Source: Flavitalea sp. (lineage in GTDB: Bacteria > Bacteroidota > Bacteroidia > Chitinophagales > Chitinophagaceae). Taken from it: a DNA stretch of 48,080 nt. The stretch is from NCBI GenBank assembly GCA_035526135.1, contig DATLDA010000057.1, forward strand, positions 1 through 48,080. The letters are read 5' to 3'. The stretch's first letter is position 1; every line of letters begins with the position of its first letter. Made by a program: the position numbers and the translations under genes. Below, piece after piece: positions 1,884-44,313 of the stretch. The notes beneath the pieces were generated by a model. The model was given only the letters and a program-made list of their open reading frames with translations. It searched no databases and was not told the origin of the DNA.

Positions 1884-3404
1884 ATGAGAAAATTGTTAGT
1901 GATATTAACTATACTGGTATTTGCAAAAGGTTATGCGCAAAAAATTCCTAACCCCGTACCGTATGCGAAAACGATTACTGCAGACGATCTCAAAAAACAT
2001 CTGTATATCATTGCAGGAAAAGATATGGAAGGCCGGGAAACGGCAACCGAGGGTCAGCGGAAAGCGGCAGCGTACATTGAAAATCATTTCCGGAGCATCG
2101 GACTTAAGGCAGGCAATAACAATAGTTTTCAAATGATGTATCCTGTATTTCAGGATTCATTGACAAAAGCAACGCTTGAGATCAATGACAAATCGTTTGC
2201 ATTGGATAAGGACTTTGCTGTAGGGGGCACCGGCTATAATTTTAGTCTGATGGGCAGTGAGGTAGCATTTGCCGGTTATGGAATAAGTGACTCTTTGCGC
2301 GATGATTATAAAGGGATCAATGCACGGGGACGCATCGTTTTGATTTTTGGCGGCACTCCTCCAGTTACAGGCAATAATCAACGCCGGCCGTCCTCCCAGG
2401 CTTCCATCATCGAGGCTGCCCAGAGAAACGGTGCTGCGGCGATCCTTCTTGTACAACCGGGCTTTCCACGCCGTCCGGGAAATGTCCGAGGCAACCAATA
2501 CCTGAATGCCTTCAGGCGTACCAATAATCCCAACACTTTTTTTATATCCGAAGATGTGGCAAAGACCATACTGGGTACTGATTTTTCAGCTGCTTCAGAA
2601 GGGATAAAAAATGGAAATGCGCAATCAAAGATCTACACGGCAAACGTTAAGTTAGAGTTGAACCGGATCAGCACTTCTGTAGAAAGCAGTAACGTGTTGG
2701 GGTTTTTGGAAGGAACAGATAAAAAAGATGAGTGGGTTGTATTGACAGCCCATTATGATCACCTCGGAAAAAGAGGTGATAGTATCGTTTATTTTGGTGC
2801 AGATGATGACGGTTCAGGAACGGTAAGCATTCTGGAATTGGCGGAAGCATTTGCGAAGGCAAAAGAAGCGGGAAAGGGACCACGAAGAAGCATGTTGTTT
2901 ATGACAGTTTCAGGAGAGGAAAAAGGCTTATGGGGTTCTGCCTATTATGGAGATCACCCGGCTTTTCCGCTGGATAAAACAACAGTAAATCTCAACATCG
3001 ATATGATCGGAAGGATCGACCCGAAAAGAAAAATCGGTGACTCGCTGAACTATGTATATGTTGTTGGCGATGATAAACTGAGCACCGATCTGCGGCCAAT
3101 CAGCGAGGCGATGAATAAAAAATATACAAAACTGGAGCTTGATTACAAGTACAATGATCCGAAGGATATGGAAAGAATTTATTTCCGCAGCGACCATTAT
3201 AATTTTGCGCGTAAGGGAGTTCCCATCATATTTTACTTTAACGGAACGCATAACGACTACCATCGACCTACCGATACTCCGGATAAGATCAATTATCCAC
3301 TGATGGCAAAAAGAGCGCAACTTGTATTCTACACCGCCTGGGAAATGGCTAACCGAAATGATATGTTGAAACGTGATTTAAGTTTAGATGTAGGAAACAG
3401 GTAA
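1884..3404 (+). CDS. M28 family zinc aminopeptidase with PA domain, secreted
   Basis: Signal peptide MRKLLVILTILVFAKGYAQ. M28 metal-ligand blocks are present: TAHYDHLG, GADDDGSGT, SGEEKGLWGS, and HNDYHRPTD near the C-terminus. Confidence 0.85.
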   Translation: MRKLLVILTILVFAKGYAQKIPNPVPYAKTITADDLKKHLYIIAGKDMEGRETATEGQRKAAAYIENHFRSIGLKAGNNNSFQMMYPVFQDSLTKATLEINDKSFALDKDFAVGGTGYNFSLMGSEVAFAGYGISDSLRDDYKGINARGRIVLIFGGTPPVTGNNQRRPSSQASIIEAAQRNGAAAILLVQPGFPRRPGNVRGNQYLNAFRRTNNPNTFFISEDVAKTILGTDFSAASEGIKNGNAQSKIYTANVKLELNRISTSVESSNVLGFLEGTDKKDEWVVLTAHYDHLGKRGDSIVYFGADDDGSGTVSILELAEAFAKAKEAGKGPRRSMLFMTVSGEEKGLWGSAYYGDHPAFPLDKTTVNLNIDMIGRIDPKRKIGDSLNYVYVVGDDKLSTDLRPISEAMNKKYTKLELDYKYNDPKDMERIYFRSDHYNFARKGVPIIFYFNGTHNDYHRPTDTPDKINYPLMAKRAQLVFYTAWEMANRNDMLKRDLSLDVGNR

Positions 3405-3438
3405 AATTTTAGATTTTAGATTTGCGATTTTAGACTTG
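3404..3438. repeat. Heptad-periodic tandem array: aaatttt agatttt agatttg cgatttt agacttg
   Basis: Five consecutive 7-nt units start at the stop codon of the M28 gene. I found no complementary partner array in this spacer. Confidence 0.7.
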
Positions 3439-3559
3439 TCCTGAGTGAGGCGAAGGATCTGTTTGCAATCAAAGAATTTCACGCAAAGACGCAAATTAAG
3501 CAAAGACGCAATGTTTATAAAGCCTGGAAATTAATGGATCCAGAGATTCGGTTTAAAGG

Positions 3560-3587
3560 GATAGCTGACAGCTGATTGCTGATAGCC
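3560..3587. repeat. Heptad-periodic tandem array: gatagct gacagct gattgct gatagcc
   Basis: Four 7-nt units of the GCTGAT/CAGCTG word family lie just downstream of the MFS gene stop. The same word family recurs at 13196-13234, 14566-14666 and 28424-28591. Confidence 0.7.
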
Positions 3588-3594
3588 ATTTTCT

Positions 3595-4782
3595 TCAGGA
3601 CCGGTTCAGTAACAAAAAGCCACCTCCCGCGATCATACATACAGCGGCAACGATCCACCACAACACGGAAAAACCGGCGGTCTGCGCGATCTGCGAACCG
3701 AAAAGCGGACCACACGTTTGTGCGATGGACCATGCAATCGTATAAAGGCCTGCATATTGACCGCGGTTATGTTCTGCTGTTCTTGAAATCCAGAAAGAAT
3801 TCATGAACGGCATAGACAGCATTTCTCCAAACGTAATCAGTACCATCATCAGGATTGCCATTTGGTGATTCATCGGAAAAATATTCAACATCAGAAACGC
3901 CAGCCCGCAAAGAAAAACACCACGGCCGATATACCAGGTCGTTGTTCGTTTCCCTTCCAGGTGAAATATCAATATCATTTCCACCAAAACGATGATGATA
4001 CCATTGACTGCTCCCAGCAAACCGATAAATCGTTCGGTAAATCCGAGCTCTATTTTGTAATAAGCATTTATATTATTGAACATCTGGAAAAAACATCCTG
4101 CAAATAAAATAGTGAGGAATATGAAGAGAAGAAACTTTTTATCACGATAGGCACTTGTGGAAGTAGCAACAATTCTTTTCGGTTGATTTAAGTTCAGGCG
4201 TTTCGCTGCAGGCAGTACAACAAGCATCAGCAGGGCAGCCATTATATTGGTAATGCCATCCACCCAAAACAGCAATTCATAATTTATTGAGGCAAGAAAA
4301 CCTCCCACCGCACTTCCGACTGCCCATCCGAGATTAATGGCGAGCCTGTTGAGCGCATAGGAACGCGTACGGTTGTTGTCGGCGCTGTAATAAACAATTG
4401 CTGTTGAATTTGCAGGTCGGAAGGCTTCGTTTACGAGGCTCAGTAAAAATGTAAAAACACAAATCGAATTGTAGGATTTCATCTGACCGAGCAGGATGAA
4501 TAATAATCCTCCACCCGTTAGGGTAATAAACTGCACCGGATAAAATCCGATCCTGTCAGTAAGCTTTCCACCGAGAAATCCGCCTGCAATCGCTCCCAAT
4601 CCGAAAAATGCGATCACGAGTCCGGCCTCTCCGATTGTGAAACCCATTTCGGGCCGGATCAGGTAGATCATCATAAATGGCACCACCATCGTACCACTCC
4701 TGTTGATCAACATGATCAGAGATAACCACCAGGTGGAAGACGAGAGCCCTGAATATGCATTGCGGTAAAGGGTGAAAATCAA
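3595..4782 (-). CDS. MFS transporter
   Basis: About 12 hydrophobic segments, with an N-terminal YRNAYSGLSSSTWWLSLIMLINRSGTMVVPFMMIYL block typical of MFS_1 proteins. The start codon appears to be TTG, so the start is less certain. Confidence 0.8.
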   Translation of the reverse strand: MIFTLYRNAYSGLSSSTWWLSLIMLINRSGTMVVPFMMIYLIRPEMGFTIGEAGLVIAFFGLGAIAGGFLGGKLTDRIGFYPVQFITLTGGGLLFILLGQMKSYNSICVFTFLLSLVNEAFRPANSTAIVYYSADNNRTRSYALNRLAINLGWAVGSAVGGFLASINYELLFWVDGITNIMAALLMLVVLPAAKRLNLNQPKRIVATSTSAYRDKKFLLFIFLTILFAGCFFQMFNNINAYYKIELGFTERFIGLLGAVNGIIIVLVEMILIFHLEGKRTTTWYIGRGVFLCGLAFLMLNIFPMNHQMAILMMVLITFGEMLSMPFMNSFWISRTAEHNRGQYAGLYTIAWSIAQTCGPLFGSQIAQTAGFSVLWWIVAAVCMIAGGGFLLLNRS

Positions 4783-4860
4783 ATTAAAAATTAGAAATGA
4801 AAAATGAAAACCGATTCTTCATCAATTTTACATTTTACATTTTACATTTTTGATTTTTCC
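4774..4860. repeat. AT-rich heptad arrays in an imperfect inverted pair, between the DUF4197 stop and the MFS start
   Basis: The right arm is attttac x3 followed by atttttg and atttttcc (4825-4860). The left arm gaaaatcaaattaaaaattagaaatgaaaaatgaaaa is its imperfect reverse complement; the outer segments gaaaatcaaa and tttgatttttc pair. Confidence 0.65.
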
Positions 4861-6192: not shown

Positions 6193-6915
6193 ATGAAAAA
6201 ACTTCTTTTTTCCGTACTTCTTTCAGGTTTTTTTATGGGCCTGATTGCCCAGACATCTAAAAAGGCAAATCCTACGCGTGTTATAAAAACAGCAGGAACA
6301 AGTGCTCCTGCGAGAATGAAAAATTCCCTCGATTCTTTCAGTTATGCACTCGGGTTGAGCATTGCCAATTTTTATAAAGAACAGGGCGTAAAAAATATCA
6401 ATAATGCACTCGTATTAAAAGCGCTGGATGATCTGAAGGCAGGAAAGCCTTTGCTGAATGAAGCGCAAATCAATAATTGCATTGTGGGCTATATGCAAAC
6501 CATGAGCAGTGGGAAAGCGGCCGGTAATAAAAAAGCCGGGGAAGCATTTCTTGCAGAAAATAAAACGAAACAAGGAGTTGTAGCCCTTGCCAGTGGATTG
6601 CAATACCAGGTGATCAAAGCGGGGACAGGTGCAATACCTACTGTGAATGACAAGGTCAAAGTACATTATCATGGAACCCTGCTTGATGGAACCGTATTCG
6701 ACAGTTCTGTTGAAAGAGGAGAGCCGATTGAACTTTCTGTGAGTGGTGTGATCCCCGGATGGACTGAAGCTTTGCAATTGATGCCGGTCGGAAGCAAATG
6801 GAAACTTTTCATTCCGTCTTCACTTGCTTATGGAGATAATCAGGCAGGTCCCGCAATCAAACCAGGATCAACACTGATCTTTGAAGTGGAGTTGCTTGAT
6901 ATTGTAAAACAATGA
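6193..6915 (+). CDS. FKBP-type peptidyl-prolyl cis-trans isomerase (Mip/FklB-like), secreted
   Basis: Signal peptide, then an FKBP_N-like helical region. The C-terminal FKBP domain reads VKVHYHGTLLDGTVFDSSVERGEPIELSVSGVIPGWTEALQLMPVGSKWKLFIPSSLAYGD. Confidence 0.9.
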   Translation: MKKLLFSVLLSGFFMGLIAQTSKKANPTRVIKTAGTSAPARMKNSLDSFSYALGLSIANFYKEQGVKNINNALVLKALDDLKAGKPLLNEAQINNCIVGYMQTMSSGKAAGNKKAGEAFLAENKTKQGVVALASGLQYQVIKAGTGAIPTVNDKVKVHYHGTLLDGTVFDSSVERGEPIELSVSGVIPGWTEALQLMPVGSKWKLFIPSSLAYGDNQAGPAIKPGSTLIFEVELLDIVKQ

Positions 6916-7016
6916 AAAATTAAAAATTAAAAATTAAATGCAGTTGATAAATCCATTAGTAAAGAAATTTTCAATTTCCTTTTGAATTGCATTTTGAATT
7001 TTTAATTTTTAATTTC
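6915..7016. repeat. Inverted pair of AAAAATT heptad arrays spanning the whole convergent spacer
   Basis: The left arm aaaaatt x3 (6915-6938) has a 19-nt perfect complement in the right arm gaatttttaatttttaatttc (6996-7016). Pairing extends imperfectly inward (aaatgcagttga versus tgaattgcattt). Confidence 0.75.
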
Positions 7017-12446: not shown

Positions 12447-13025
12447 TTACTGGTGATGGTGCAACAGATGTTTAAGGCGACTAAAAGTTTCCGGCTGAAT
12501 CTGGAGGTAGGAAGCTAGAAATTTTTGTGGTACACGAATGAGAAATTCAGGATTTTCTTCGACAAATTTCAGGAAACGTTCCCGGGTTGTATAACGGATC
12601 TGGTCAAGATCACGTTGTTCGTTCTGCAGGTAAAGATCAGTAATGATCAGTCGGCCGAGGCGTTCCCATTTGGCGTCCTTGCGGTATAATTCTTCAATCT
12701 GTTCGAAAGTAAAGGAAAATAAAATGGTAGGTTCGATGGTTTCAATAATGTAACCTGAAGGAGATTCCGTAAGAAAAGAAACGGAGGAACTTACCAGTTC
12801 ACCTTCACGTGCAATCTGTGTAATGATTTCTTCCTCGCCGCGGATGATGTATTTTCTTACCAGTCCTTTGATAACCAGGTTCAGATGACTGTCAATATCA
12901 CCCACATCAACCAACCGGATCTTCTTATTGAAGCTGCGGCATTCACCCAGAGAGGCCAGCAGCAAATAGTCCTTTTCATCCAATACCGCAAACCTGCTGA
13001 GAAATTGTTTCAGCGCCTTAACCAT
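12447..13025 (-). CDS. Crp/Fnr family transcriptional regulator (cNMP-binding domain plus HTH)
   Basis: cNMP-binding-like core and a C-terminal HTH (ERFLKFVEENPEFLIRVPQKFLASYLQIQPETFSRL). The track ORF runs to 13184, but residues 1-53 ([14 protein letters not shown]) translate the heptamer array, so I trimmed to MVKALKQF. Confidence 0.75.
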   Translation of the reverse strand: MVKALKQFLSRFAVLDEKDYLLLASLGECRSFNKKIRLVDVGDIDSHLNLVIKGLVRKYIIRGEEEIITQIAREGELVSSSVSFLTESPSGYIIETIEPTILFSFTFEQIEELYRKDAKWERLGRLIITDLYLQNEQRDLDQIRYTTRERFLKFVEENPEFLIRVPQKFLASYLQIQPETFSRLKHLLHHHQ

Positions 13026-13067
13026 ACCTGCAATATAACTTATTAAGGCAATAGAAGCAAGGAAGGC

Positions 13068-13279
13068 GGGGTATGGGGTATGAGGTATGGGGTATGAGGT
13101 ATGAGGTATGAGGTATGAAAAAATAAATGTCAGTTTTTCTAATCCGTTACGAAATAAAAAAATTCGAACTGTCATAACATGCAACTAAGGAATATCTGAT
13201 AGCTGAAAGCTGATAGCCGATTGCCGATTGCTGATACCCCATCCCCCATACCTCATACCTCATACCCCATACCTCATAC
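13068..13279. repeat. Inverted pair of GGTATGR / YCTCATA-type heptad arrays, with a nested CTGATAG array, in a divergent spacer
   Basis: The left arm gggg tatgggg tatgagg tatgggg tatgagg x3 tatg is at 13068-13117 and the right arm at 13234-13279. By my reading, catacctcatacctcataccccatacctcata (32 nt) is perfectly complementary between the arms. The spacer also holds ctgatag ctgaaag ctgatag ccgattg ccgattg ctgatac (13196-13237). Confidence 0.85.
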
Positions 13280-13303
13280 ACTTCTCCACACCCACAAAAT
13301 CCC

Positions 13304-13311
13304 TACTTTTG
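13304..13311 (+). promoter_or_regulatory. Bacteroidota -7 promoter box TAnnTTTG (TACTTTTG)
   Basis: Exact motif 21 nt upstream of the icd ATG at 13333. Confidence 0.45.
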
Positions 13312-13332
13312 CTGCCCTTATATATTTTATTC

Positions 13333-14565
13333 ATGGCACAGAAAATAAAAGTCAAAAATCCCGTAGTAGAACTTGATGGTGATGAAATGACCAGGATCAT
13401 TTGGAAATTTATCAAGGATAAATTGATCCTGCCTTATCTCGATATAGATATTAAATATTATGATCTTGGGATTGAATACCGCGACCAGACATCGGACCAG
13501 GTAACGGTGGATGCGGCGAATGCTATCCGGCAATACGGTGTAGGCATTAAGTGCGCCACCATCACACCAGACGAGGTGCGTGTGAAAGAATTCAATCTGA
13601 AACAAATGTGGAAAAGCCCCAATGGAACCATACGGAATATTCTCGATGGAACCGTTTTCAGGGAACCGATCGTTATCAAAAATATTCCACGCCTGGTAAC
13701 CAATTGGACGGCTCCGATCATTGTAGGCAGACATGCATTCGGTGATCAGTACCGCGCGACTGATACGGTGATCAAAGGGAAAGGAAAACTCACGATGACT
13801 TTTACTCCTGAGGATGGTGGTCCTGTACAAACGTTTGAAGTTTTTAATTTTAAGGGAGACGGCGTGGCGTTAAGCATGTATAATACCGATGAAAGCATTC
13901 AGGGTTTCGCCAGGAGTTGTTTCAATATTGCATTGACAAAAAAATGGCCTTTATATCTTTCAACAAAAAATACCATCCTAAAGAAATATGATGGCAGGTT
14001 CAAAGATATTTTTGAAGATATCTACCAGAAAGAATTCAAAAAACAATTTGAAGCGGCCGGAATAGTTTACGAGCACCGTCTCATTGATGATATGGTGGCG
14101 AGTGCCCTGAAGTGGAATGGAAATTTTGTATGGGCCTGCAAAAATTATGACGGTGATGTGCAAAGTGATTCGGTAGCCCAGGGATTCGGATCATTGGGTC
14201 TGATGACTTCAGTATTGATAACTCCGGACGGTAATACAATGGAAGCAGAAGCAGCTCATGGAACCGTTACGCGCCATTTCAGAGATCACCAGGCAGGGAA
14301 GCCTACATCCACGAACCCAATTGCATCCATTTTTGCGTGGACGCGTGGTCTTGCATTCCGTGGAAAGCTGGATAATAACCAGGCTCTAATTGATTTTAGT
14401 CTTGCTCTGGAAAAAGTCTGTATTGAAACCGTAGAGAGCGGCAAAATGACTAAAGACCTTGCTGTATGTATCCACGGAAATAAAGTAAATCACGGCGCGC
14501 ATTATCTGTACACCGAGGAGTTTTTGGAAGCGATTGACTCGAATTTGAAACGGAAGGTCGGATAG
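13333..14565 (+). CDS. icd: NADP-dependent isocitrate dehydrogenase, eukaryote-like (type II homodimeric) class
   Basis: [24 protein letters not shown]...DIKYYDLG...[13 protein letters not shown]...RHAFGDQY...DGDVQSD is the IDH1/2-like family pattern. The track ORF start at 13228 translates the heptamer array, so I trimmed to 13333. Confidence 0.92.
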
Positions 14566-14666
14566 AGAGCAATCGGCTATCAGCAGTCAGCTGTCCCAGT
14601 TTGATCAAATTCCAGAGCATAATAATTTAATCAGGTGGGACTGCTGACCGCTGATAGCTGATACCC
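14566..14666. repeat. Inverted pair of heptad arrays (atcggct atcagca gtcagct / ctgaccg ctgatag ctgatac) immediately 3' of icd
   Basis: ctatcagcagtcagctgtccc (left) versus the reverse complement of gggactgctgaccgctgatag (right) matches at 19 of 21 positions. The loop is about 40 nt. Confidence 0.8.
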
Positions 14667-14696
14667 GAATTATATGGTTTAGGCTGTCAGGTCCGC

Positions 14697-14726
14697 AAAA
14701 AAAAGCCATCCTGAGATCAGGACGGC
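14697..14726 (-). terminator. Intrinsic terminator for the small lipoprotein gene
   Basis: On the minus strand the sequence is gccgtcctga..tcaggatggc (about 9 bp including one G-U pair) followed by a run of 8 U. It lies 33 nt downstream of the stop at 14759. Confidence 0.6.
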
Positions 14727-14758
14727 CTCTAACGATTGCTTGCCATATAAAAAAAAGC

Positions 14759-15691: not shown

Positions 15692-16794
15692 TGGAAGACA
15701 TACAATTATTGGACGCAGTAGAACGCTACATCCGGAATGAAATGGAAGCAGAAGAAAAGATCCGTTTCGAACAATTGAGGAAAAGCACCCCCGAGATAGA
15801 TCAGTTGGTTGTGGAACATACCCTGTTTCTTCAACAAATGAACCAGTATGCCGACCAGAAGAATTTCAAATCTTCACTACAGGAAGTTCATCACGACCTG
15901 GTTGCTTCAGGAGTTGTAGCTCCTGAACATGCCAAACCTGTTGTAATACAACTTTGGAAAAGATACAAACGTGTTATGGCCGTTGCGGCCTCTATCGCCG
16001 GGGTTACCACCATGCTGATTGCTGGTATGGTTTCCTATTATTCGAGAAAAGCCAATACCGCTGAACTCGAAATGCTAAATCGCAAATTCGAGAATACCAA
16101 AAGGACAGTAGATGCACTGAAACAAAAAGTTGAAAATTCTACTCCTGTCATTGTTCCAAAAGCACCGATCAATGCACCCGTTATTTCCGGTGGTACCGGA
16201 TTTCTGATCGATGGCAAAGGATACCTTGTCACGAATGCACACGTTGTAAAAGGATCCACTTCTATTGTAGTTCAAAACAATAAAGGGCAGGAATTCCGTG
16301 CAAGGATCATTCATAATAATCCTGCAAATGATATTGCTTTCCTGAAAATCGAAGATGATGATTTTAAACCGGTAGGTTCACTCCCCTATGGTTTCCGAAA
16401 AACAGGAGCAGACCTGGGTGAAACATTATTCACGCTTGGATATCCCCGTGAGGAAATCGTATACAATGAAGGATATATGAGTGCAAAAACAGGCTTTAAT
16501 GGAGACACTATGACATGTCAGATCGGTGTGTCTGCGAATCCCGGAAATAGCGGCGGGCCTGTTTTTAACAAAAACGGAGAAGTGATTGGGATCATCAACA
16601 CAAGACATATCGCCTCACAGGGTGTTGTATTTGCTATTACAGCAAAAAATATTTACCGATCGCTCGACGAAATAAAACAAGATACTTCACTGTCTGCAAT
16701 CAAACTTTCCTCTTTCTCATCCGTCCGCAATTTCGATCGTGTACAACAGATCAAAAAAATTGAAGATTGTGTGTATATGGTGAAAAGCTATTGA
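15691..16794 (+). CDS. Single-pass membrane protein: N-terminal cytoplasmic helical domain, TM, coiled coil and trypsin-like (S1) serine protease domain; putative anti-sigma or signal-processing partner
   Basis: The ATG overlaps the sigma gene TGA (tgATG); the track start is GTG 15688. TM segment VMAVAASIAGVTTMLIAGMVSYY. The catalytic triad context is TNAHVV, NDIAFLK, GNSGGPV. I recognised no PDZ domain. Confidence 0.75.
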   Translation: MEDIQLLDAVERYIRNEMEAEEKIRFEQLRKSTPEIDQLVVEHTLFLQQMNQYADQKNFKSSLQEVHHDLVASGVVAPEHAKPVVIQLWKRYKRVMAVAASIAGVTTMLIAGMVSYYSRKANTAELEMLNRKFENTKRTVDALKQKVENSTPVIVPKAPINAPVISGGTGFLIDGKGYLVTNAHVVKGSTSIVVQNNKGQEFRARIIHNNPANDIAFLKIEDDDFKPVGSLPYGFRKTGADLGETLFTLGYPREEIVYNEGYMSAKTGFNGDTMTCQIGVSANPGNSGGPVFNKNGEVIGIINTRHIASQGVVFAITAKNIYRSLDEIKQDTSLSAIKLSSFSSVRNFDRVQQIKKIEDCVYMVKSY

Positions 16795-16795
16795 T

Positions 16796-16873
16796 AGTTC
16801 AGAGTTCAGAGTTCTTAGTTCTTAGTTCTCAGTGCCGGAATTGCCTAACTAAGAACCAGGAACTAAGAACTAA
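16796..16873. repeat. Inverted pair of AGTTCNN heptad arrays across a convergent spacer
   Basis: Left arm: agttcag x2, agttctt x2, agttctc (16796-16830). The right arm ctaactaagaaccaggaactaagaactaac contains a 12-nt perfect complement (gaactaagaact). It overlaps the last codons and stop of the minus-strand gene. Confidence 0.8.
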
Positions 16874-17780
16874 CTTGCGACTTCTCCCACAATTTCTCCG
16901 GGTATTCGCCTTTTTGTACCAATTCATTCAGTTCGCGCCTGACTTCGGGAGCATCTTCTTTATAGGTTACACCAAACCATTGTGCACTGGTCGGGATCAC
17001 TTTAATAGTTCCCGCATCGTCAGCAATAAACCGGTCGCCAACAATGGGAATAAAAAATTCTGCTTTCGGGTTTGCACGATTGTCTTCCAGAAAACTTTTA
17101 AACAATTGTTGCGAGTATTCGAATATGGAGGGTTCGAAACACCAGAAATTCATCGATACCTGCGCATTCAGTGGAAGCTCTTTGGGTTGCTGGTTATCAT
17201 CGCAAACAATCTTACCGTCTTTCTTTGCAATATTCAATCTCTCTTTAATCGCAGTAAGATCACCCTTCTTATCTACTTCACAAACGCCCCTGTTCACTGT
17301 TCCATTTTCAGATAAGGTTTTGAGCAGTTCATAGCCTATGATCGAGTACGTCTCCGGATTACATTCTTTTGTGAGAAAATTGAATGCTTTTTTGAATGCA
17401 TCTCTTCCGTAAAAATCATCTGCATTGATAACTGCAAAAGGTTCCCTCACTTTATCTTTAGCACAGAGCACGGCATGTGCCGTTCCCCACGGCTTCGTCC
17501 TTCCTTCCGGTACCTGGAATCCATTCAGAAATGAAGTCAGTTCCTGAAATACATAATCTATTTCAATTCGACCTTTGAGTTTCGGTTCGAATATCCTTCG
17601 GAAATTAGGGGCAAACTCTTCCCGGATAATAAAGACAACCTTACCAAATCCGGCGCGGATTGCATCGAAAATCGAATAATCCATAATCGTTTCACCCCCC
17701 GGGCCAAAAGATTCAACCTGTTTCATGCTTCCATAACGTGATGCCATACCAGCCGCCAGAATCAAAAGAGTTGGTTTCAT
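16863..17780 (-). CDS. Sugar-phosphate nucleotidyltransferase family protein
   Basis: The N-terminal LILAAGMASRYG loop is of the G-x-G-T/S-R type, with an NTP_transferase-like fold pattern. The substrate cannot be assigned. Confidence 0.7.
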   Translation of the reverse strand: MKPTLLILAAGMASRYGSMKQVESFGPGGETIMDYSIFDAIRAGFGKVVFIIREEFAPNFRRIFEPKLKGRIEIDYVFQELTSFLNGFQVPEGRTKPWGTAHAVLCAKDKVREPFAVINADDFYGRDAFKKAFNFLTKECNPETYSIIGYELLKTLSENGTVNRGVCEVDKKGDLTAIKERLNIAKKDGKIVCDDNQQPKELPLNAQVSMNFWCFEPSIFEYSQQLFKSFLEDNRANPKAEFFIPIVGDRFIADDAGTIKVIPTSAQWFGVTYKEDAPEVRRELNELVQKGEYPEKLWEKSQVSS

Positions 17781-19779: not shown

Positions 19780-20520
19780 CTATAGTTCAATGGGTTGTTG
19801 AGATGCGTGAATAATTTCCGATTCGAAAACATCCCCGAAATGACCCACTAATCTTTTTTTCACAACGTCCATTGACACTTCTCTCCCTAATTCCTTTTTT
19901 AGTGAAGTAACTTGTTTGTCAGGTATGCCACACGGAATTATCTGATTGAAGTAATCCAGATCAGTGTTTACATTTAAAGCAAATCCATGCATGGTAATCC
20001 ATCTGCTGCAACGGACCCCGATCGCACAGATCTTCCGTTGTTTACCTGGCACGAGGGGATCTATCCATACACCCGTTTCGCCTTTACTTCTTTCACCTTG
20101 TAACCCGAAATCTGCCATCACGCGGATAACAACTTCCTCCAGGTTGCGGAGATACCTGCCTATATCGCGATAAAATTTTTCGAGGTCGAGAATCGGATAA
20201 CCTACCAGTTGGCCAGGACCGTGAAAGGTGATGTCACCACCACGGTTCGTTTTGAAAAATTCTATTCCTGTTTTTTGTAATTGCGGCATCGTAACAAGAA
20301 CATGCTCCATCAATCCGCTTTTTCCCAGTGTATAAACGGGTGGATGTTCTACAAACAATAAATGGTGGGTGGTTTCTTCTTCTGCAATTAAAGCTTCAGG
20401 TCCTATTCCAGTCTTTGTGGCCGACTTCCTTAATGCATTCTCCTTTAATAAAAGTTCCTGCAGATTCCAGGCAGTCTGGTAATCGATCATTCCGAGGTCC
20501 TTAAATAGTATTGTTTGCAT
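19780..20520 (-). CDS. lipB: Lipoyl(octanoyl) transferase
   Basis: RGGDITFHGPGQLVGYPILDL and KICAIGVRCSRWITMHGFALNV motifs. The track start at 20769 adds 83 residues of non-homologous sequence. The start at 20520 (MQTILFKDLGMIDY) has a -7 box 9 nt upstream. Confidence 0.9.
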   Translation of the reverse strand: MQTILFKDLGMIDYQTAWNLQELLLKENALRKSATKTGIGPEALIAEEETTHHLLFVEHPPVYTLGKSGLMEHVLVTMPQLQKTGIEFFKTNRGGDITFHGPGQLVGYPILDLEKFYRDIGRYLRNLEEVVIRVMADFGLQGERSKGETGVWIDPLVPGKQRKICAIGVRCSRWITMHGFALNVNTDLDYFNQIIPCGIPDKQVTSLKKELGREVSMDVVKKRLVGHFGDVFESEIIHASQQPIEL

Positions 20521-20529
20521 ATGCAGGTA

Positions 20530-20537
20530 CAAAGATA
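20530..20537 (-). promoter_or_regulatory. Bacteroidota -7 promoter box TAnnTTTG (TATCTTTG on the minus strand)
   Basis: Exact motif 9 nt upstream of the lipB ATG. Confidence 0.45.
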
Positions 20538-20614
20538 CAAGCCATATGGTTAATTGATAACACGGGTAAATCGCTGATTGAAATCGTCGTGCTATCATAT
20601 AAAGTATGCCCTCG

Positions 20615-20622
20615 TACATTTG
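20615..20622 (+). promoter_or_regulatory. Bacteroidota -7 promoter box TAnnTTTG (TACATTTG)
   Basis: Exact motif 4 nt upstream of the ATG at 20627 and downstream of the track start at 20606. This argues for the 20627 start and a near-leaderless mRNA. Confidence 0.45.
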
Positions 20623-20626
20623 CAGA

Positions 20627-21691
20627 ATGGATAAGAATAGTTTGTATGAAGAGCCAGGTGAAGCTTCGGAAGAATTATACGAGCGGCTCAATCTGATCGT
20701 TGACAAAGGACAGGAGCCCATGCGTCTGGATAAATTTCTCACTGCAAGGATTGAAGGTGCTTCCCGCAATAAAATTCAACAGGCCATTGAATCAGGCAGG
20801 GTATTGATCAATGGCCAGACAGTGCAGGCAAATCACCGAATCAAACCAGGAGAGGAAATTGTTTTGTATTCGGATAAAGAAGTGCATGGCGAAAAGATCA
20901 TACCGGAAAAAATGGACCTCGATATTGTTTTCGAAGATGAAGAAATTCTCATTATCAATAAACCAGTAGGCCTGGTTGTACATCCTGCTTCCGGCAATCC
21001 TTCTGGAACTCTGATCAATGGTGTAGCTTATTATTTGTTACAGGAGGACAACAGTCGCTCCGAAGAAAATCTTCCCCGCTTTGGGTTGGTACACAGGATC
21101 GACAAGAATACCAGCGGACTGATGGTTTTGGCTAAAACAGAGAAAGCTGTTGCGAGTTTGGCGAAAGAATTTTTCGAGCATACTATTCACCGTTACTACG
21201 TGGCTGTTGTTTGGGGAGATGTGCGCAACGATGAAGGAACGATCAGGGCACATATCGGCAGACATAAAAGATTTCGTAAAATCTTTGATGCCTATCCTGA
21301 AGGAGACTCCGGCAAGGAAGCTGTCACGCATTACAAAGTCTTGGAACGATTCGGTTATGTGACTTTAATACAATGTGAGTTGGAAACTGGCCGTACACAT
21401 CAGATCCGTGTTCATATGAAACATATCGGTCACCCACTTTTCAATGATGAATTATATGGTGGAGATAAAATTGTAAAAGGAACGGTATTCAGCAAATACA
21501 AGCAGTTCGTTCATAATTGTTTTGAGATTTGCCCCCGGCACGCACTGCATGCAAAATCTATCGGGTTCATACATCCGAAAAGCCGTAAAGAAGTACGATT
21601 TGATAGTGAAATACCAAAAGACATGTCACAATTGATTGAAAAATGGCGTGGGTACAGTCAGAGCAGAATAACAAAAGGTGAAACAAATTAA
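20627..21691 (+). CDS. rluD: RluA-family 23S rRNA pseudouridine synthase (RluD-like) with S4 domain
   Basis: S4 domain RLDKFLTARIEGASRNKIQQAIESGRVLINGQ, catalytic HRIDKNTSGLMVLAK, and TGRTHQIRVH. Confidence 0.88.
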   Translation: MDKNSLYEEPGEASEELYERLNLIVDKGQEPMRLDKFLTARIEGASRNKIQQAIESGRVLINGQTVQANHRIKPGEEIVLYSDKEVHGEKIIPEKMDLDIVFEDEEILIINKPVGLVVHPASGNPSGTLINGVAYYLLQEDNSRSEENLPRFGLVHRIDKNTSGLMVLAKTEKAVASLAKEFFEHTIHRYYVAVVWGDVRNDEGTIRAHIGRHKRFRKIFDAYPEGDSGKEAVTHYKVLERFGYVTLIQCELETGRTHQIRVHMKHIGHPLFNDELYGGDKIVKGTVFSKYKQFVHNCFEICPRHALHAKSIGFIHPKSRKEVRFDSEIPKDMSQLIEKWRGYSQSRITKGETN

Positions 21692-21783
21692 AAATTAAAA
21701 ATTTAAAATTAAAAATGAAAAAGAATAAGAATGACAAACCGAATGAACAAATGAAGTAGTTTTTTAATTTTTAATTTTTAATT
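21688..21783. repeat. Inverted pair of AAAAATT/AAAAATG heptad arrays across a convergent spacer
   Basis: The left arm aaaaatt aaaaatt taaaatt aaaaatg begins at the rluD stop. The right arm ttttaat x3 (21761-21783) overlaps the stop of the minus-strand gene. Confidence 0.75.
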
Positions 21784-22722
21784 GGCTTCAAAATCGAAGA
21801 GCGTTGCTGTAAAAACGCTGTGTTCTCTTTTCTTTAATACGGCATCCCAGTTTCCGTTGTATCGAAGCACTTTTGGTACTAGAAAGTTTTTGAATTTAGT
21901 CATCTCCACTTCCACATGAACATCGAAATCGTATACGCCGGCGCCGTAACTCAGGTCGTAATTACGGGCCACGATCTCCCAGGAATCCGTACGAAACCAT
22001 GTCGTCATCTCATTAATTACGATATCATTTTTTTCACTTCGGGTTAGATCGGCGCGCGGAGAAATTTTAAAGACATAACAGTTCTCGCCATTCAGCGGCT
22101 GGATGTCGATCACGAAATCATACTTCGGTGAAACCTCATCATCAAACAATGCGACTTTGTTTCCAATGAAAGGTATGCCGGGTATTTTGGTGCCGGGATT
22201 AAAAAAAAGCATTTTCAACTGTTCCTTGTGTTTTGCCATTCCACTTTTTCCTTTCAGCCGCAATTCTGAATTCCCAACGATATTCGTTTCTCCGCAGATG
22301 GTGTCTAATGCAAAAAACAGCCCTGCATACATTTCAAGCGTATAATAATTAAATTCCTTTTTTGCATTATAAATGTCACCCTTAACCTGTTCGGATTGAA
22401 CACTCATCCATCTGCATCTGTTACCCACATGTTGCCGCGTCCGGCTGCGAAGTGATGCTTTCACTTTCCCTTTCTTGTCAAGCATCTGCACATCATTCAA
22501 AGCTGTATATCCCAATATTTTCAAATTCTTGAAGGCCTTGTAGAATGTCGTGTCGTTTTTCACTCTGTCGATGAAGGCTGGAACGTTGAGATTGCTCCGG
22601 ACCACGACTTCTTTCAGCGTAAGTACTTTTTTTTCAAGCGTGATGGTTGAATCCTGAGCGAGCAGGGCGCAACCCGGCAGGATCATCATCATCAGAATTA
22701 TGCACCGCCACATGAACACCAT
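21778..22722 (-). CDS. Hypothetical secreted protein
   Basis: Hydrophobic N-terminus (ILMMMILPGCALLAQD). The gene lies just downstream of def on the same strand. No family was recognised. Confidence 0.55.
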   Translation of the reverse strand: MVFMWRCIILMMMILPGCALLAQDSTITLEKKVLTLKEVVVRSNLNVPAFIDRVKNDTTFYKAFKNLKILGYTALNDVQMLDKKGKVKASLRSRTRQHVGNRCRWMSVQSEQVKGDIYNAKKEFNYYTLEMYAGLFFALDTICGETNIVGNSELRLKGKSGMAKHKEQLKMLFFNPGTKIPGIPFIGNKVALFDDEVSPKYDFVIDIQPLNGENCYVFKISPRADLTRSEKNDIVINEMTTWFRTDSWEIVARNYDLSYGAGVYDFDVHVEVEMTKFKNFLVPKVLRYNGNWDAVLKKREHSVFTATLFDFEAN

Positions 22723-23321: not shown

Positions 23322-23360
23322 ATTACTTCAAAAAAGAGGTGCAAAGATGAGGAGAAATGA

Positions 23361-23490
23361 AATAATTAATAATTAATAATTAATAATTGTAATCAGTAAT
23401 TAGGAGTACTGTTAGAGTTGGTATCGGCTTTTGATGGTTTCAGGGCATGCTATTCATTCGGCAACCCCTTTAATTATTAATTGTTAATTC
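23361..23490. repeat. Inverted pair of AATAATT / TTAATTN heptad arrays between ruvX and def
   Basis: Left arm: aataatt x4, gtaatca, gtaatta (23361-23402). Right arm: ttaatta ttaattg ttaattc (23470-23490). The spacer is about 67 nt. Confidence 0.75.
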
Positions 23491-23499
23491 CCCATTGCA

Positions 23500-25447: not shown

Positions 25448-25720
25448 TAGTTCACAGTTCACAGTTCTCAGTTGCTTGTCACTGGTTGCTGGTTCCTCAA
25501 ATACAACAGCGTATTTTCCATTCCCATTCCCCATACCTCAATCACAGACAATCGACTACAGTTGGACCAACGACCATAGACCATTGACGACGGACATTAA
25601 TCATTGTATATACTGTGAAACTCTTTCTTTATTCATTTCTATTGTCGGTCGTCTATCGTCGGATGTCCATCGTACTCGTCTATTGTCGATCGTCTATGGT
25701 CGGTGGTCTATATTCGGTGA
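25448..25720. repeat. Composite of several heptad-periodic arrays filling the divergent spacer
   Basis: tagttca cagttca cagttct cagttgc ttgtcac tggttgc tggttcc (25448-25496); cattcc/ccatacc words (25516-25545); gaccaac gaccata gaccatt gacgacg gacatta (about 25565-25599). An imperfectly complementary array ggtcgtctatcgtcggatgtccatcgtactcgtctattgtcgatcgtctatggtcggtggtctat lies at about 25647-25711. Confidence 0.75.
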
Positions 25721-25806
25721 TCCAAGGTTAAAAACAGCGTTTCACCGTTTTCTTCCCAACTTCTCCACAATATTTCCTCCCATGTTTACAGCGGGATCAA
25801 AGCCGC

Positions 25807-25814
25807 TATTTTTG
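25807..25814 (+). promoter_or_regulatory. Bacteroidota -7 promoter box TAnnTTTG (TATTTTTG)
   Basis: Exact motif 5 nt upstream of the mutS ATG at 25820. Confidence 0.4.
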
Positions 25815-25819
25815 TTTTC

Positions 25820-28417: not shown

Positions 28418-28423
28418 TAGTAA

Positions 28424-28591
28424 GGTATGAGCTGTCAGCGGTCAGCAGTCAGCTGTCAGCGGTCAGCGGTCAGCAGTCAGCTGTCAGTAATCAGATATCA
28501 CCGTAAAAAATTTATTGTCAGTGACGTGTAATTGTTCATGTTAGAAATTCACGAGGTGGGACAGCTGATAGCTGATTGCTGAGAGCCGTAC
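28424..28591. repeat. Eleven-unit GNNNTCA heptad array plus complementary GCTGANN array across a convergent spacer
   Basis: ggtatga gctgtca gcggtca gcagtca gctgtca gcggtca gcggtca gcagtca gctgtca gtaatca gatatca (28424-28500). The partner gctgata gctgatt gctgaga gccgtac is at 28564-28591. Confidence 0.85.
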
Positions 28592-28599
28592 ATACAGCA

Positions 28600-29793: not shown

Positions 29794-29967
29794 AAGCAGT
29801 GAATTGAGGTTGCCTTAAAATACAAAAAGATCCGTTCACGATGTAAATAAATATATAATCGGTGGATGCTACACGGGAAAAACACCAATAGTTTAGTGTT
29901 TAAAAGCATAAAGTGAATGAGTAAAAAGGCAGGTAAGAAAGCGGAAAATATTTTTTTCGCCTCATAG

Positions 29968-30005
29968 AAAAAAGGCTTCGCCTCTTAAGAGGCGAAGCCT
30001 TTTTT
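29968..30005. terminator. Bidirectional intrinsic terminator
   Basis: Perfect 12-bp GC-rich stem aggcttcgcctc / gaggcgaagcct with loop ttaa, flanked by an A-run upstream and a T-run downstream. It lies 12 nt beyond the stop of the minus-strand OMP gene. Confidence 0.85.
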
Positions 30006-30016
30006 ATTTCACACCA

Positions 30017-30685
30017 TTAAAACTCAAACCCGACGCCCACCTTAATTACACGGTTATAGGATTTGAAATTTGAATTTTTATCAAGCCGCGACAATCCATG
30101 ATCATAGCCTGCAGTAATAGAAAAGCCATTATCGAATTTATATCCGGCACCGCCAACCACCGCAAAATCGAATGGATTGAACTGGTCTGTGATATCCATA
30201 TTCCTGTTGATCAATGAAAAACCCAGGATGCCCGCGTCCACATGCATGTTATTCTTAACAAGATAGGAAACCTGAGGACCTGCATACAACTGGAGTCCTT
30301 TTACCGGCATAACTTTCAACAGTAAGGGCACATCAATATAATGCGACTGTACCTGCAGTCTTGCATTGGCACCAAGAAACTCCAGCTTATTGACTTCTAA
30401 GTTCCCCTGAAGTGCATACCCTTTTTGCGAGTAGTATAAGCCGGGCTCAATTGAAACCATGTCTGAAACAGGTATTGCGGCAAAGCCACCGGCGAAAAAA
30501 CCTGTTCGCCCGCGTGTATCAACATACCCATTGGTAATAGTTACGAGGTTATTCAGGCTCTGCACAGCATCACCTTTCCAGCTTGCACTGCTCAAACCAG
30601 CACGGATTCCAAATTTCGTTTGTGCCTCCGCGTTAAAAATAAATAGAAATGAAATAAAGACGGACAGGGTAAAAATCTTTTTCAT
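30017..30685 (-). CDS. Outer-membrane beta-barrel protein (PorT/OmpW-like small porin family)
   Basis: Signal peptide, alternating amphipathic beta-strands, and a C-terminal aromatic ending VGVGFEF. Confidence 0.75.
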   Translation of the reverse strand: MKKIFTLSVFISFLFIFNAEAQTKFGIRAGLSSASWKGDAVQSLNNLVTITNGYVDTRGRTGFFAGGFAAIPVSDMVSIEPGLYYSQKGYALQGNLEVNKLEFLGANARLQVQSHYIDVPLLLKVMPVKGLQLYAGPQVSYLVKNNMHVDAGILGFSLINRNMDITDQFNPFDFAVVGGAGYKFDNGFSITAGYDHGLSRLDKNSNFKSYNRVIKVGVGFEF

Positions 30686-35574: not shown

Positions 35575-35581
35575 GAGCGCG

Positions 35582-35589
35582 CAAAATTA
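35582..35589 (-). promoter_or_regulatory. Bacteroidota -7 promoter box TAnnTTTG (TAATTTTG on the minus strand)
   Basis: Exact motif 7 nt upstream of the cysteine desulfurase ATG at 35574. Confidence 0.45.
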
Positions 35590-35619
35590 AGCAGAAATGG
35601 GGGATGGACAATGCGCATT

Positions 35620-35784
35620 GGGCTATGAGTTATGGCTATGAGGCAAACTTTGGAATTCGCAGTTTGCGAATTTGGGGAGTTTTGGAAGTTTGGACAGTCT
35701 GGATGTTTGGGGAGTTGATAATTTTTACAGGGAGGGATACCTGATACCTAAAGCCCTCTGCTCATTGCTCACGGCTCATGGCCC
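35620..35784. repeat. Inverted pair of CTATGAG / CTCATNG heptad arrays with a nested TTTGG-word array
   Basis: Left arm gggctatgagttatggctatgagg (35620-35643); right arm cctctgctcattgctcacggctcatggccc (35755-35784). The spacer holds tttggaa..tttgcga atttggg gagtttt ggaagtt tggacag tctggat gtttggg. Confidence 0.7.
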
Positions 35785-35788
35785 AAGG

Positions 35789-44231: not shown

Positions 44232-44313
44232 GAGCTATGAGATACGTCGTGTATCGCGAATGTTCAATTTAATTATAACACAATAGAACCGATTATTCCT
44301 CATTGCTCATTAC
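44232..44313. repeat. Weak inverted pair of the CTATGAG / CTCATTG word family in a convergent spacer
   Basis: tgagctatgaga (left) versus the reverse complement of cctcattgctca (right) matches at about 10 of 12 positions. The spacer is about 55 nt. The word family is the same as at 35620-35784. Confidence 0.45.

Follow-up and report, generated by a model that had tools for sequence, protein, structure and literature searches.

Between the divergently oriented genes for a Crp-like regulator and isocitrate dehydrogenase of Flavitalea sp., two tandem arrays of seven-nucleotide units face each other as reverse complements. This arrangement raises the question of what generates such arrays, and whether the hairpins that they could form are of any use to the cell. 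The original prediction listed 13 spacers with such arrays in the window, i.e. the whole stretch of 48,080 nt that was analyzed, and it ascribed the same architecture to all of them.

The period of seven was quantified in the intergenic DNA of the window, which comprises 4.4 kb. Positions seven nucleotides apart were identical with a frequency of 0.367, and the signal continued at lag 14 (0.340) and lag 21 (0.325). All other lags of at least 2 yielded values of 0.26-0.29 (about 0.28), and lag 1 yielded 0.33. In contrast, the coding DNA of the window was flat at 0.25, without a peak at lag 7. Arrays were then defined as regions of at least 21 nt with at least 12 of 14 matches at a lag p. For p = 7, 19 arrays with a total length of 663 nt were detected, compared with 0-1 arrays for each other period between 4 and 12. 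The expectation by chance is about 0.2 arrays per 48-kb window, and mononucleotide-shuffled Bacteroidota DNA contained 11 arrays per 2.54 Mb. The same arrays were recovered independently with TRF, and they were present in 12 of the 27 spacers of at least 40 nt. Among the 161 sequences examined, only 10% of the arrays were embedded in long open frames, compared with 66% of random segments. The arrays are not an assembly artefact because each has unique flanks and because the same architecture is found in isolate genomes, e.g. that of Chitinophaga rupis DSM 21039. The predicted strict periodicity was thus borne out by the lag-7 peak, the detector and TRF, and in the window the period of seven is restricted to intergenic DNA.

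The repeated word differs from locus to locus, as had been claimed. The window alone contains at least 8 unrelated words, most of which are rich in A/T or belong to the GCTGAYA or GGTATGR type, and 88 canonical words were found for the 146 arrays of all sequences examined, with a mean G+C content of the units of 28%. The proposed number of 4-5 conserved positions per unit is only approximate, as several words have 6 of 7 positions fixed. A stop codon was present on at least one strand in 124 of the 146 units, a number that is uninformative without a composition-matched null.

At the focal locus, the left arm (GGTATGR)x7 extends from 13068 to 13118 (+ strand; TRF period 7, 7.0 copies, 92% matches), starts 42 nt beyond the start codon of the Crp-like regulator, and forms the 5'-side of the stem in RNA as well as DNA folds. 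It is followed by an A/T-rich, non-repeated loop (13119-13191), which is either unpaired or weakly folded according to the centroid structures and does not resemble other loops. The right arm (CYCATAC)x6.6 (13234-13279, + strand, found with TRF) is the reverse complement of the left arm and stops 53 nt before the ATG of isocitrate dehydrogenase. The two arms are complementary over 40 nt at 95%, and their longest perfect Watson-Crick match comprises 33 nt (13078-13110 versus 13247-13279), very close to the 32 nt that had been estimated. The predicted nested array was also found to be real: it lies at 13192-13236 (+ strand; TRF period 7, 6.4 copies, 81%), is unrelated to the arms, remains unpaired and consists of units of the CTGATAG/CCGATTG type, a rotation of TAGCTGA. 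Its word family recurs at 3560-3586, 14569-14666 and 28430-28591. The RNA fold of the locus has a free energy of -89.4 kcal/mol (z -7.2); for the DNA fold, a z-score of -7.3 was obtained.

The DNA fold and the 33-bp perfect stem would be compatible with a role at the level of DNA, i.e. cruciforms or slipped structures that absorb supercoils, make replication pause or serve as hotspots of recombination, and so would the existence of pairs flanked by divergent promoters, the two arms of which are not covered by any single transcript. However, loops of 40-140 nt, as they are present here, disfavor cruciform extrusion, and the AT-only and mismatched stems are weak. Such a role therefore seems very improbable to us.

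The original prediction had also proposed that gain or loss of units could change promoter geometry. A candidate Bacteroidetes-type -7 box for isocitrate dehydrogenase, TACTTTTG (13304-13311, + strand), which is based on a pattern match to the consensus only, lies downstream of the arrays. In array-free syntenic relatives, the similar box TAGGTTTG within GTAGGTTTGCTATCC is found about 20-26 nt upstream of the ATG, at the same relative position. A change in unit number would thus leave the spacing of the core promoter unchanged, and the proposal is unsupported for isocitrate dehydrogenase. The second large divergent locus, the spacer between the genes for a SpoU methylase and mutS (25449-25725), has the same arrangement, and the candidate -7 box of mutS at 25807 is downstream of the arrays. 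This locus was found with TRF and the arm-pair search and its spacer fold has z-scores of -3.2/-3.5. It contains an unpaired (AGTTCAC)3.6 array (25449-25473) and a GACCANN array (25562-25595), which pairs with a TCTATCGTCGGTCG array with a period of 14 nt (25638-25725). The two loci are among the largest in the window, lie between divergent genes and are situated upstream of candidate core promoters.

These results bear on the possibility that the arrays are phase-variable spacers that tune promoters, or multivalent sites for a protein that reads heptads, e.g. an OB-fold protein of the cold-shock or S1 type on RNA, or a regulator that binds DNA. There are precedents for both, as CspB binds heptamer repeats with one protein per unit (discussed in PMC4679880) and deletion of heptamer repeats alters the behavior of the recO promoter in Nostoc (bioRxiv 10.1101/2022.06.06.494920), and the focal array is close to the start codon of the Crp-like regulator. 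However, such a number of different words speaks against a reader with sequence specificity, the genes next to the arrays are housekeeping genes, the spacing of the candidate core promoters is independent of unit number, and most arrays are found at stop codons and not at start codons. We therefore attach hardly any probability to either version.

Inverted pairing of the arrays is not confined to the focal locus. For 15 of the 19 arrays, a reverse-complement partner with a score of at least 12 was found within 300 nt, so that 79% of the arrays in the window are paired, compared with 24% elsewhere. The complementarity of the arms exceeded that of mononucleotide shuffles, and in 9 of 12 pairs none of 300 shuffles reached the observed score. 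The spacers with paired arrays each fold as a single long hairpin, with z-scores of -3 to -9.8 for words that contain G+C. The hairpins of these words lack a U-tract. The arms of AT-only hairpins are complementary, but thermodynamically weak and barely stable. Of the uniform architecture that had been claimed for all 13 loci, 10 true inverted pairs remained; the arrays at 3404-3587 are unpaired, and the loci at 35620 and 44232 are marginal.

Many of the loci are convergent spacers. At 6911-7016, an (AAAAATT)n/(AATTTTT)n hairpin extends between the stop codons of the two genes (84% complementarity over 32 nt, z -4.2). The hairpin at 16795-16873 is formed by (AGTTCNN)5.6 and (AACTAAG)3.9 (TRF, arm-pair search; z -4.1), and the 3'-terminal codons of the gene at 16863-17780 (- strand) overlap with its right arm. 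The AT-only pair (AAATTAA)n/(TTTTTAA)n at 21685-21785 is complementary over 23 nt at 96% and contains the stop codons of both genes inside the arrays; its fold is weak, with a z-score of -0.1 for the bare spacer (21692-21777) and -15.5 kcal/mol and a z-score of -2.2 for 21678-21792. The spacer 3' of mutS (28424-28591) contains (AGCNGTC)8-9 on the left and (GCTGAYA)3.4 as right arm (TRF score 81-95; 27 nt at 81%) and folds with z-scores of -7.5/-6.2. Two convergent spacers deviate from this pattern. At 3406-3586, the two arrays, ATTTTAG x4 (3406-3434) and GATAGCT x3.9 (3560-3586), are unrelated and unpaired (inverted score 7, fold z +0.8/-0.5), and an 8-nt repeat, ACGCAAAG, is also present. At 44232-44313, about two units per side, GAGCTATGAG and CTCATTGCTCATT, form a marginal locus (z -0.5/-1.8), in which neither TRF nor the period-7 detector found an array.

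The hairpin directly 3' of isocitrate dehydrogenase (14569-14666) has CTATCAG/CAGTCAG and CTGACNG/CTGATAG arms, which are complementary over 27 nt at 89% (-49.5 kcal/mol, z -7.5). The spacers between tandem genes harbor a partial inverted pair of an AAATGAA-type and an ATTTTAC array (4775-4858; -20.8 kcal/mol, z -3.0), an (AATAATT)4/(TTAATTA)2.9 pair (23361-23490; 20 nt at 95%, z -2.0), and the marginal CTATGAG/CTCATNG arms at 35620-35790 (arm score 7, z -2.2/-2.5), between which an 8-9-nt repeat, AGTTTGGA, is situated. For the latter locus, the 2-3 degenerate units per side at 35620-35784 were not detected as an array by the period-7 detector, and the fold is weak. Last, at the gene 3'-end at 47951-48041 (+ strand), AAATGAA/AAATTAA arrays and their complementary arrays (27 nt at 85%; -30.6 kcal/mol, z -4.5) lie outside of a canonical terminator core, a GC-rich 13-bp stem with U7 (about 47981-48012), which is thus nested in the heptad stem.

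The order of variant units was compared between the arms. It was not mirrored in the permutation test (P 0.03-1.0), and only the pair at 25562 was marginal (P=0.03). A recent inverted duplication of whole arrays was therefore dropped as an explanation for the window, and the non-mirrored order fits independent growth of each arm from a shared seed. At 28424-28591 the consensus of the two arms has diverged, and this drift suggests that selection on pairing is weak.

The distribution of the arrays in the window points to the 3'-ends of genes. All 7 convergent spacers of at least 60 nt carry arrays, in contrast to 5 of the 20 other spacers (Fisher p=0.0009), and the arrays adjoin or contain stop codons. 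In the array-bearing spacers between 12000 and 30500, the stretch covered by the scan, canonical terminator-like sites were not predicted, and a canonical GC stem-loop with a U-tract was found solely in the core of 47951-48041. The high occupancy of convergent spacers makes a role as hairpins at transcript 3'-ends plausible for this genome. The arrays are not simply terminators, as had been argued from the start: two loci are in divergent spacers, and most hairpins are devoid of a U-tract. The two large loci between divergent genes also argue against a 3'-end role, because no transcript is known that would need a 3'-end there. Moreover, in 18 other array-rich loci of Bacteroidota, arrays occurred with equal frequency in convergent (16 of 47), tandem (32 of 102) and divergent spacers (12 of 44), and no 3'-end bias of paired arrays was observed. 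This lowers our confidence in a terminator function, and a terminator role is therefore not general across Bacteroidota.

The comparison with relatives was restricted to the distance of genera or families, because the highest identity among MutS relatives was only 75-77%, in genome and metagenome collections alike. The best MutS relatives belong to the Chitinophagaceae (Agriterribacter, Parasediminibacterium and Ferruginibacter, 72-77% identity). At this distance, and with crude ORF calls in the relatives, the arrays were not conserved in orthologous spacers. Syntenic relatives have no arrays; instead, a terminator with a GC stem and a T-tract follows isocitrate dehydrogenase. Downstream of mutS, Chitinophaga species without arrays have bidirectional terminators, and the same position is occupied by arrays of different words or periods in the window and in L003, L040, L045 and L061. 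The distribution among related genera is patchy, and arrays found in one species may be lacking in others of its genus. In Chitinophaga rupis, a heptad hairpin of about 190 nt with 30-nt perfect arms lies between two back-to-back promoter boxes, which directly neighbor each other in congeners. The unit has 7 nt in the genome under study and in C. rupis; units of 8 nt are found in C. terrae and in some Bacteroidales. The arrays arose in place and have replaced canonical terminators at orthologous positions.

The C. rupis hairpin resembles an insertion, and together with the arm-loop-arm layout and the word families shared by several loci it might indicate a MITE-like or other non-autonomous mobile element with terminal inverted repeats built from heptads. 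We regard this as highly unlikely. An all-versus-all BLAST of the spacers yielded matches of at most 31 nt, which were confined to the arrays, and two GGTCCAT loci of C. rupis are also alike in their arrays only. A single element is also hard to reconcile with at least 8 unrelated words in 48 kb. Target-site duplications were not seen by eye at the focal locus and the C. rupis insertion, and no transposase or RAYT was found among the 20 window proteins scanned with Pfam. The MITE reading was rejected because the loops are unrelated between loci. The high diversity of words and the restriction of similarities between spacers to the arrays point to a word-agnostic process, and they argue against a specific element as well as against a specific binding site.

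With guarded confidence, we favor the explanation that heptad repeats arise in place by slippage and are most likely used as hairpins at transcript 3'-ends. Replication slippage with a preferred step of 7 nt would generate lineage-specific repeats in non-coding DNA, possibly seeded by pre-existing stem arms or A/U tracts, and these arrays would turn over fast. Two arms of the same word in opposite orientation would form one long imperfect hairpin in RNA or extruded DNA, typically from stop codon to stop codon. The hairpins may then serve as bidirectional terminators and/or as barriers to 3'-exonucleases, and would stand in for the GC-stem/U-tract terminators that are found at the same positions in relatives. 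The same mutational process would yield the arrays in divergent spacers and the unpaired arrays as by-products.

An origin by slippage that is largely neutral stays a strong rival because the convergent bias is absent in the 18 other array-rich loci. In that case, a slippage bias of the lineage or template switching would produce arrays and their inverted copies wherever selection permits, the hairpins would be without function, and the enrichment in convergent spacers would reflect only the absence of promoters there. We consider this possible rather than probable. It agrees with the absence of arrays from orthologous spacers of congeners and syntenic relatives, with the patchy spread among related genera, with the non-mirrored unit order and the drifted consensus of the arms, and with the existence of unpaired arrays (3404-3587, 13192-13236, 25449-25473). 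It is also in line with a general tendency of 5-11-nt repeats to expand, to which Mrazek (2007) ascribed such repeats according to the account in PMC4679880. Against neutrality stand the arrays in all convergent spacers of the window, the much higher fraction of paired arrays than elsewhere, and the absence of canonical terminators exactly at the heptad hairpins, at positions where relatives have them. In addition, the identical word of the two arms is not accounted for by slippage alone.

Another possibility is that some switchable, word-agnostic "molecular ruler" extends the arms in fixed steps of 7 or 8 nt, and that its products displaced the ordinary terminators in this lineage. Instead of generic slippage, a dedicated enzyme or a specific factor of replication or repair would set the step, as might be suspected from a trait that is on in one species and off in its congeners. 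We consider this reading unlikely.

Heptanucleotide arrays have long been noted in some bacterial genomes and have remained unexplained there, and the window represents an unusually dense and clean case, in which most of the array-bearing spacers form stop-to-stop hairpins. Even species of one genus differ in whether they have the arrays, and the unit sometimes has 8 nt instead of 7 nt, which makes the trait a tractable comparative system. Comparison of the array-rich Chitinophaga rupis and Parasediminibacterium with array-free congeners could reveal what fixes the length of the unit and whether hairpins replace intrinsic terminators in Bacteroidota. The arrays are also relevant for annotation, as open frames that cross them lead to spurious N-terminal extensions.

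By functional analogy, the hairpins are similar to the REP/BIME extragenic palindromes of enterobacteria and to bidirectional terminators, which can halt transcription from either side or shield the 3'-ends of mRNA, and which are also spacer hairpins at gene 3'-ends, often between convergent genes. REPs share a conserved consensus and are mobilized by RAYT transposases, whereas the loci of the window have no common consensus. The short GC stem with a U-tract that characterizes intrinsic terminators is present solely in the core at 47951-48041. A known RNA family was rejected, as Rfam covariance models yielded 0 matches at the gathering score in the whole window, and tRNA and tmRNA were also absent from it.

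The STRRs of cyanobacteria had been named as the class for comparison, and this choice was well founded. Simple-sequence repeats of this kind are known best from cyanobacteria and from Xanthomonas. Both groups have tandem 7-nt units, several words per genome, many intergenic loci and frequently a hairpin layout; the host here is a member of the Chitinophagaceae (Bacteroidota) and not a filamentous or heterocystous cyanobacterium. The classical words STRR1-3 are CCCCAGT, TTGGTCA and CAACAGT, as reportedly described by Mazel and coworkers in 1990, and tandem dimers of these words do not occur in the window even if 2 mismatches are allowed. Hairpin-forming STRRs are "not unusual" in filamentous cyanobacteria, e.g. 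at hupS-hupL and hoxW, and a role in transcript stabilization has been proposed (PMC2670836). Inverted pairs of heptamer arrays are also known from Xanthomonas, with 70-75 pairs per genome (Rehm et al. 2015, PMC4692102); the type of the pair is kept between species, the length varies, and a stem-loop is possible. The view that the paired inverted layout had not been described was thus too strong. The likeness comprises intergenic heptamers with frequent close pairs on opposite strands. The units of Xanthomonas and Nostoc, GGGAATC and GGGGAYT, have G-quadruplex potential, and Xanthomonas uses a single G-rich word (PMC4692102), whereas the words here are several and mostly not G-rich; neither GGGAATC nor GGGGAYT is present in tandem in the window.

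The claim that heptad arrays had not been described in Bacteroidota also went too far. MacGregor (2015, PMC4679880) reported TAACTGA repeats in Beggiatoaceae, cyanobacteria and five Bacteroidetes; the intergenic regions of Gramella forsetii, Aequorivita sublithincola, Elizabethkingia, Flexibacter and Paludibacter contain TAACTGA as well as "other heptamer direct repeats", and the other heptamers of Gramella, Aequorivita and Elizabethkingia are missing in close relatives that share the gene neighborhood. Intergenic location and patchy phylogenetic distribution are thus common features. However, the TAACTGA sets are short and forward and directly precede start codons, and essentially a single inverted case was reported (PMC4679880), whereas the arrays here adjoin stop codons and mostly form inverted pairs. 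TAACTGA dimers do not occur in the window; the nearest words are TAGCTGA and TATCTGA, and the recurrent TAGCTGA is one base from TAACTGA. The most general precedent is the survey of 5-11-nt long simple sequence repeats (LSSR) by Mrazek (2007). As relayed in PMC4679880 and PMC4692102, heptamers were the over-represented class of long repeats in this survey, the repeats occurred in free-living bacteria with large genomes, and polymerase slippage was proposed. The arrays of the window are likewise over-long tandem repeats with heptads as the commonest class, and the 19 arrays by far exceed the expectation from shuffles. The LSSR are a statistical class, and the survey is not known to address inverted-pair hairpins or Chitinophagaceae. 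In summary, the arrays of this genome are real and largely of an already described kind, the heptanucleotide STRR/LSSR class.

Arrays were sought across the whole window with a detector requiring at least 12 of 14 matches at lag p over at least 21 nt. For period 7, 19 arrays covering 663 nt were found, and each other period from 4 to 12 yielded no array or one. All 19 were located in spacers. Over the intergenic DNA (4.4 kb), lag-7 identity was 0.367, with harmonics at lag 14 (0.340) and lag 21 (0.325); the other lags of at least 2 gave 0.26-0.29, and lag 1 gave 0.33. Coding DNA was flat at about 0.25, without a lag-7 peak. Because this peak is confined to intergenic DNA, and the detector's yield from shuffled Bacteroidota DNA was only about 0.2 arrays per 48 kb, the predicted period-7 arrays are confirmed. 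Words recurring between loci included GCTGAYA/CAGC and AAAAATT (four loci each). The most recurrent G+C-containing word was TAGCTGA/CAGCTGA, written CTGATAG (13192-13236, 3560-3586, 14636-14666 and 28556-28591), and GAGCTAT/GAGTTAT and CTGACCA were seen again in distant Bacteroidales MAGs (L049, L061). Array-bearing spacers also contained an 8-nt repeat, ACGCAAAG (3.8 copies, 3481-3511), and an 8-9-nt repeat with indels, AGTTTGGA-like (5.9 copies, 35661-35710). Rfam and tRNA scans of the window gave no matches.

The arrays of this genome are predominantly hairpin arms. A reverse-complement partner lay at most 300 nt away for 15 of the 19 arrays, and arm complementarity was far above that of mononucleotide shuffles. 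The inverted-pair layout, originally predicted for 13 spacers, held for the 10 in which an inverted-repeat search found arm pairs; the arms at 3405-3594 were unrelated (z near zero), and 35620-35784 and 44232-44313 were marginal, with two to three degenerate units per side. The AT-only spacer 21692-21777 also folded with z near zero. The pairs each formed one long hairpin with the arrays as arms; at the level of the spacer, z was -7 to -9.8 for 13026-13332, 14566-14758 and 28418-28599, about -4 to -5 for 6916-7016 and 16788-16880, and -2 to -3.5 for 4783-4860, 23322-23499, 25535-25819 and 35575-35788. The order of variant units was not mirrored between the arms of the window pairs; therefore, the arms seem to share a word but to have expanded independently. 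Stem arms and A/U tracts that were already present are one possible seed of the common word. Membership of a MITE or REP-like family was ruled out, because in an all-against-all BLAST of the window spacers the matches were at most 31 nt long and confined to the arrays, and the loops were unrelated.

In the divergent spacer between the Crp-like gene and isocitrate dehydrogenase (IDH), the left arm (GGTATGR)x7 (13068-13118) is followed by an A/T-rich stretch (between 13118 and 13192), a second array of CTGATAG/CCGATTG units (13192-13236) and the right arm (CYCATAC)x6.6 (13234-13279). The stem comprises 33 nt of perfect Watson-Crick pairing, with a fold energy of -89.4 kcal/mol for RNA (z -7.2; DNA fold z -7.3). 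The arrays are upstream of the candidate -7 boxes of IDH (13304) and, in the second array-bearing divergent spacer, of mutS (25807). Therefore, the two hairpins are not obviously within any transcript, and unit gain or loss would not alter core promoter spacing; the suggested effect on promoter geometry was not supported for IDH. Two mechanical ORFs with TTG starts, 12447-13184 (-) and 13228-14565 (+), traverse the arrays and have spurious N-terminal extensions of heptad-derived peptides; gene callers could thus mis-annotate start codons adjoining such arrays. The two longest ORFs, 19780-20769 (-) and 20606-21691 (+), share 164 nt at the 5' end, an overlap that probably stems from over-extended start codons rather than being real.

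The window is a housekeeping stretch encoding M28 and M1 peptidases, an MFS transporter, FKBP, an Nramp-Usp protein, the Crp-like protein, IDH, MutS, RuvX, peptide deformylase and others. Its best MutS identity in genome and metagenome collections was 75-77%, and no close relative of this Chitinophagaceae bacterium was found. Arrays occupied 7 of 7 convergent spacers of at least 60 nt; the share was 3 of 11 for tandem spacers and 2 of 9 for divergent ones (Fisher p=0.0009). They start at stop codons or a few nt away, and several first units include the stop codon. Stop codons lie in array units at 6913-6915, 21689-21691, 3402-3404 and 44219-44221, and also at 16863-16873 and 21778-21785, where the last few codons are included as well; through their growth, arrays may have altered C-termini or provided the stop codon. 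A scan of 12-30.5 kb predicted no canonical terminator-like site in array-bearing spacers. The window's one ordinary, non-heptad bidirectional terminator (29951-30022, AAAAAAGGCTTCGCCTCTT/AAGAGGCGAAGCCTTTTTT) is perfect, with a spacer fold z of about -5. The heptad stem at 47951-48041 encloses a canonical terminator core (13-bp GC stem, U7 tail), as though the A and U tracts beside this core had expanded.

Three syntenic metagenomic relatives (IDH 89-90% identical) contained no arrays within 12-13 kb. Their Crp-IDH spacers measure 101-146 nt and have a -7 box at a similar position; IDH is followed by a canonical GC-stem/T-tract terminator where the window has the heptad hairpin 14569-14666. 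Upstream of IDH, relatives carry two tandem cNMP-binding (Crp-like) genes (L161:3939-5171, L164:3912-5149); the window has one (12447-13025). The spacer 3' of mutS has arrays of differing words or periods in the window and four comparison loci (L003, L040, L045, L061), and ordinary bidirectional terminators in array-free Chitinophaga species. The convergent spacers, the stop-to-stop geometry, the relatives' orthologous terminators and the embedded canonical core make it the best-supported functional reading that gene-end heptad hairpins would act as 3'-end hairpins replacing ordinary terminators.

Four syntenic Chitinophaga species were compared. Only in C. rupis does a [GGTCCAT array]-loop-[ATGGACC array] of about 190 nt (L020:9755-9975), with 30-nt perfect arms, separate two divergent promoter -7 boxes. 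In C. terrae (L051:9955-10010) the two boxes directly abut, and in Chitinophaga sp. sic0106 (L015:9935-10010) about 20 nt lie between them; the spacer of the fourth species (L019) is 178 nt long and free of arrays. The hairpin looks like an insertion. Its loop was not found at the other C. rupis GGTCCAT locus (L020:17420-17600). In a complex higher-order repeat at L020:19940-20400, units of about 100 nt each contain AGCAGAAAGGATAAAGC-type heptads and precede complementary GCTTTNT arrays.

In 160 Bacteroidota loci centred on mutS, taken from genomes and metagenomes and totalling 2.54 Mb, we found 127 period-7 arrays versus 11 in shuffles, and 31 period-8 arrays versus 1. The distribution was patchy: 18 loci had at least three heptad arrays, Agriterribacter, the closest MutS relative, had none, and Parasediminibacterium, Chitinophagaceae 26-R-25, Ferruginibacter, C. 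rupis, Daejeonella and several Bacteroidales MAGs were array-rich. Words were very diverse, with 88 canonical words among 146 arrays (mean unit G+C 28%). Outside the window, 31 of 127 arrays had inverted partners versus 13 direct partners, and 1 in the far control. Some Bacteroidota have 8-nt units in the same layout (L051:183-297; L130:56-267; L061:590-3520, 12621-12735; L003:7360-7501, 12601-12625), for example CAAAGAAG/CTTCTTTG in C. terrae, TTATTTGG/CCAATAAC and GATTACAG/CTGTAATC; therefore, the preferred unit length varies by genome, even inside one genus. By crude ORF-based gene calls, arrays in the 18 other array-rich loci were equally frequent in convergent (16/47), tandem (32/102) and divergent (12/44) spacers, and paired arrays showed no spacer-type bias either, which counts against a general terminator role. 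A largely neutral origin is therefore a strong rival, also favored by the arrays in divergent spacers, the arms drifting apart and the weak AT stems. Overall, the original interpretation was supported in part.

These arrays belong to the STRR/LSSR type of heptanucleotide repeat; they originate in situ and their turnover is rapid. We found no literature description of their multi-word inverted-pair form in Chitinophagaceae, and STRR1-3, TAACTGA, GGGAATC and GGGGAYT did not occur in tandem in the window. As cited in PMC4679880 and PMC4692102, Mrazek 2007 reported that long repeats are most commonly heptanucleotides and suggested that they result from polymerase slippage. In Xanthomonas, GGGAATC arrays form 70-75 inverted pairs per genome, with conserved pair type and variable length (Rehm et al. 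2015, PMC4692102). TAACTGA arrays occur in Beggiatoaceae, cyanobacteria and five Bacteroidetes, and spacers of Gramella, Aequorivita and Elizabethkingia carry other heptamer direct repeats that are missing in close relatives (MacGregor 2015, PMC4679880). The TAGCTGA word of the window is one base off this TAACTGA repeat.
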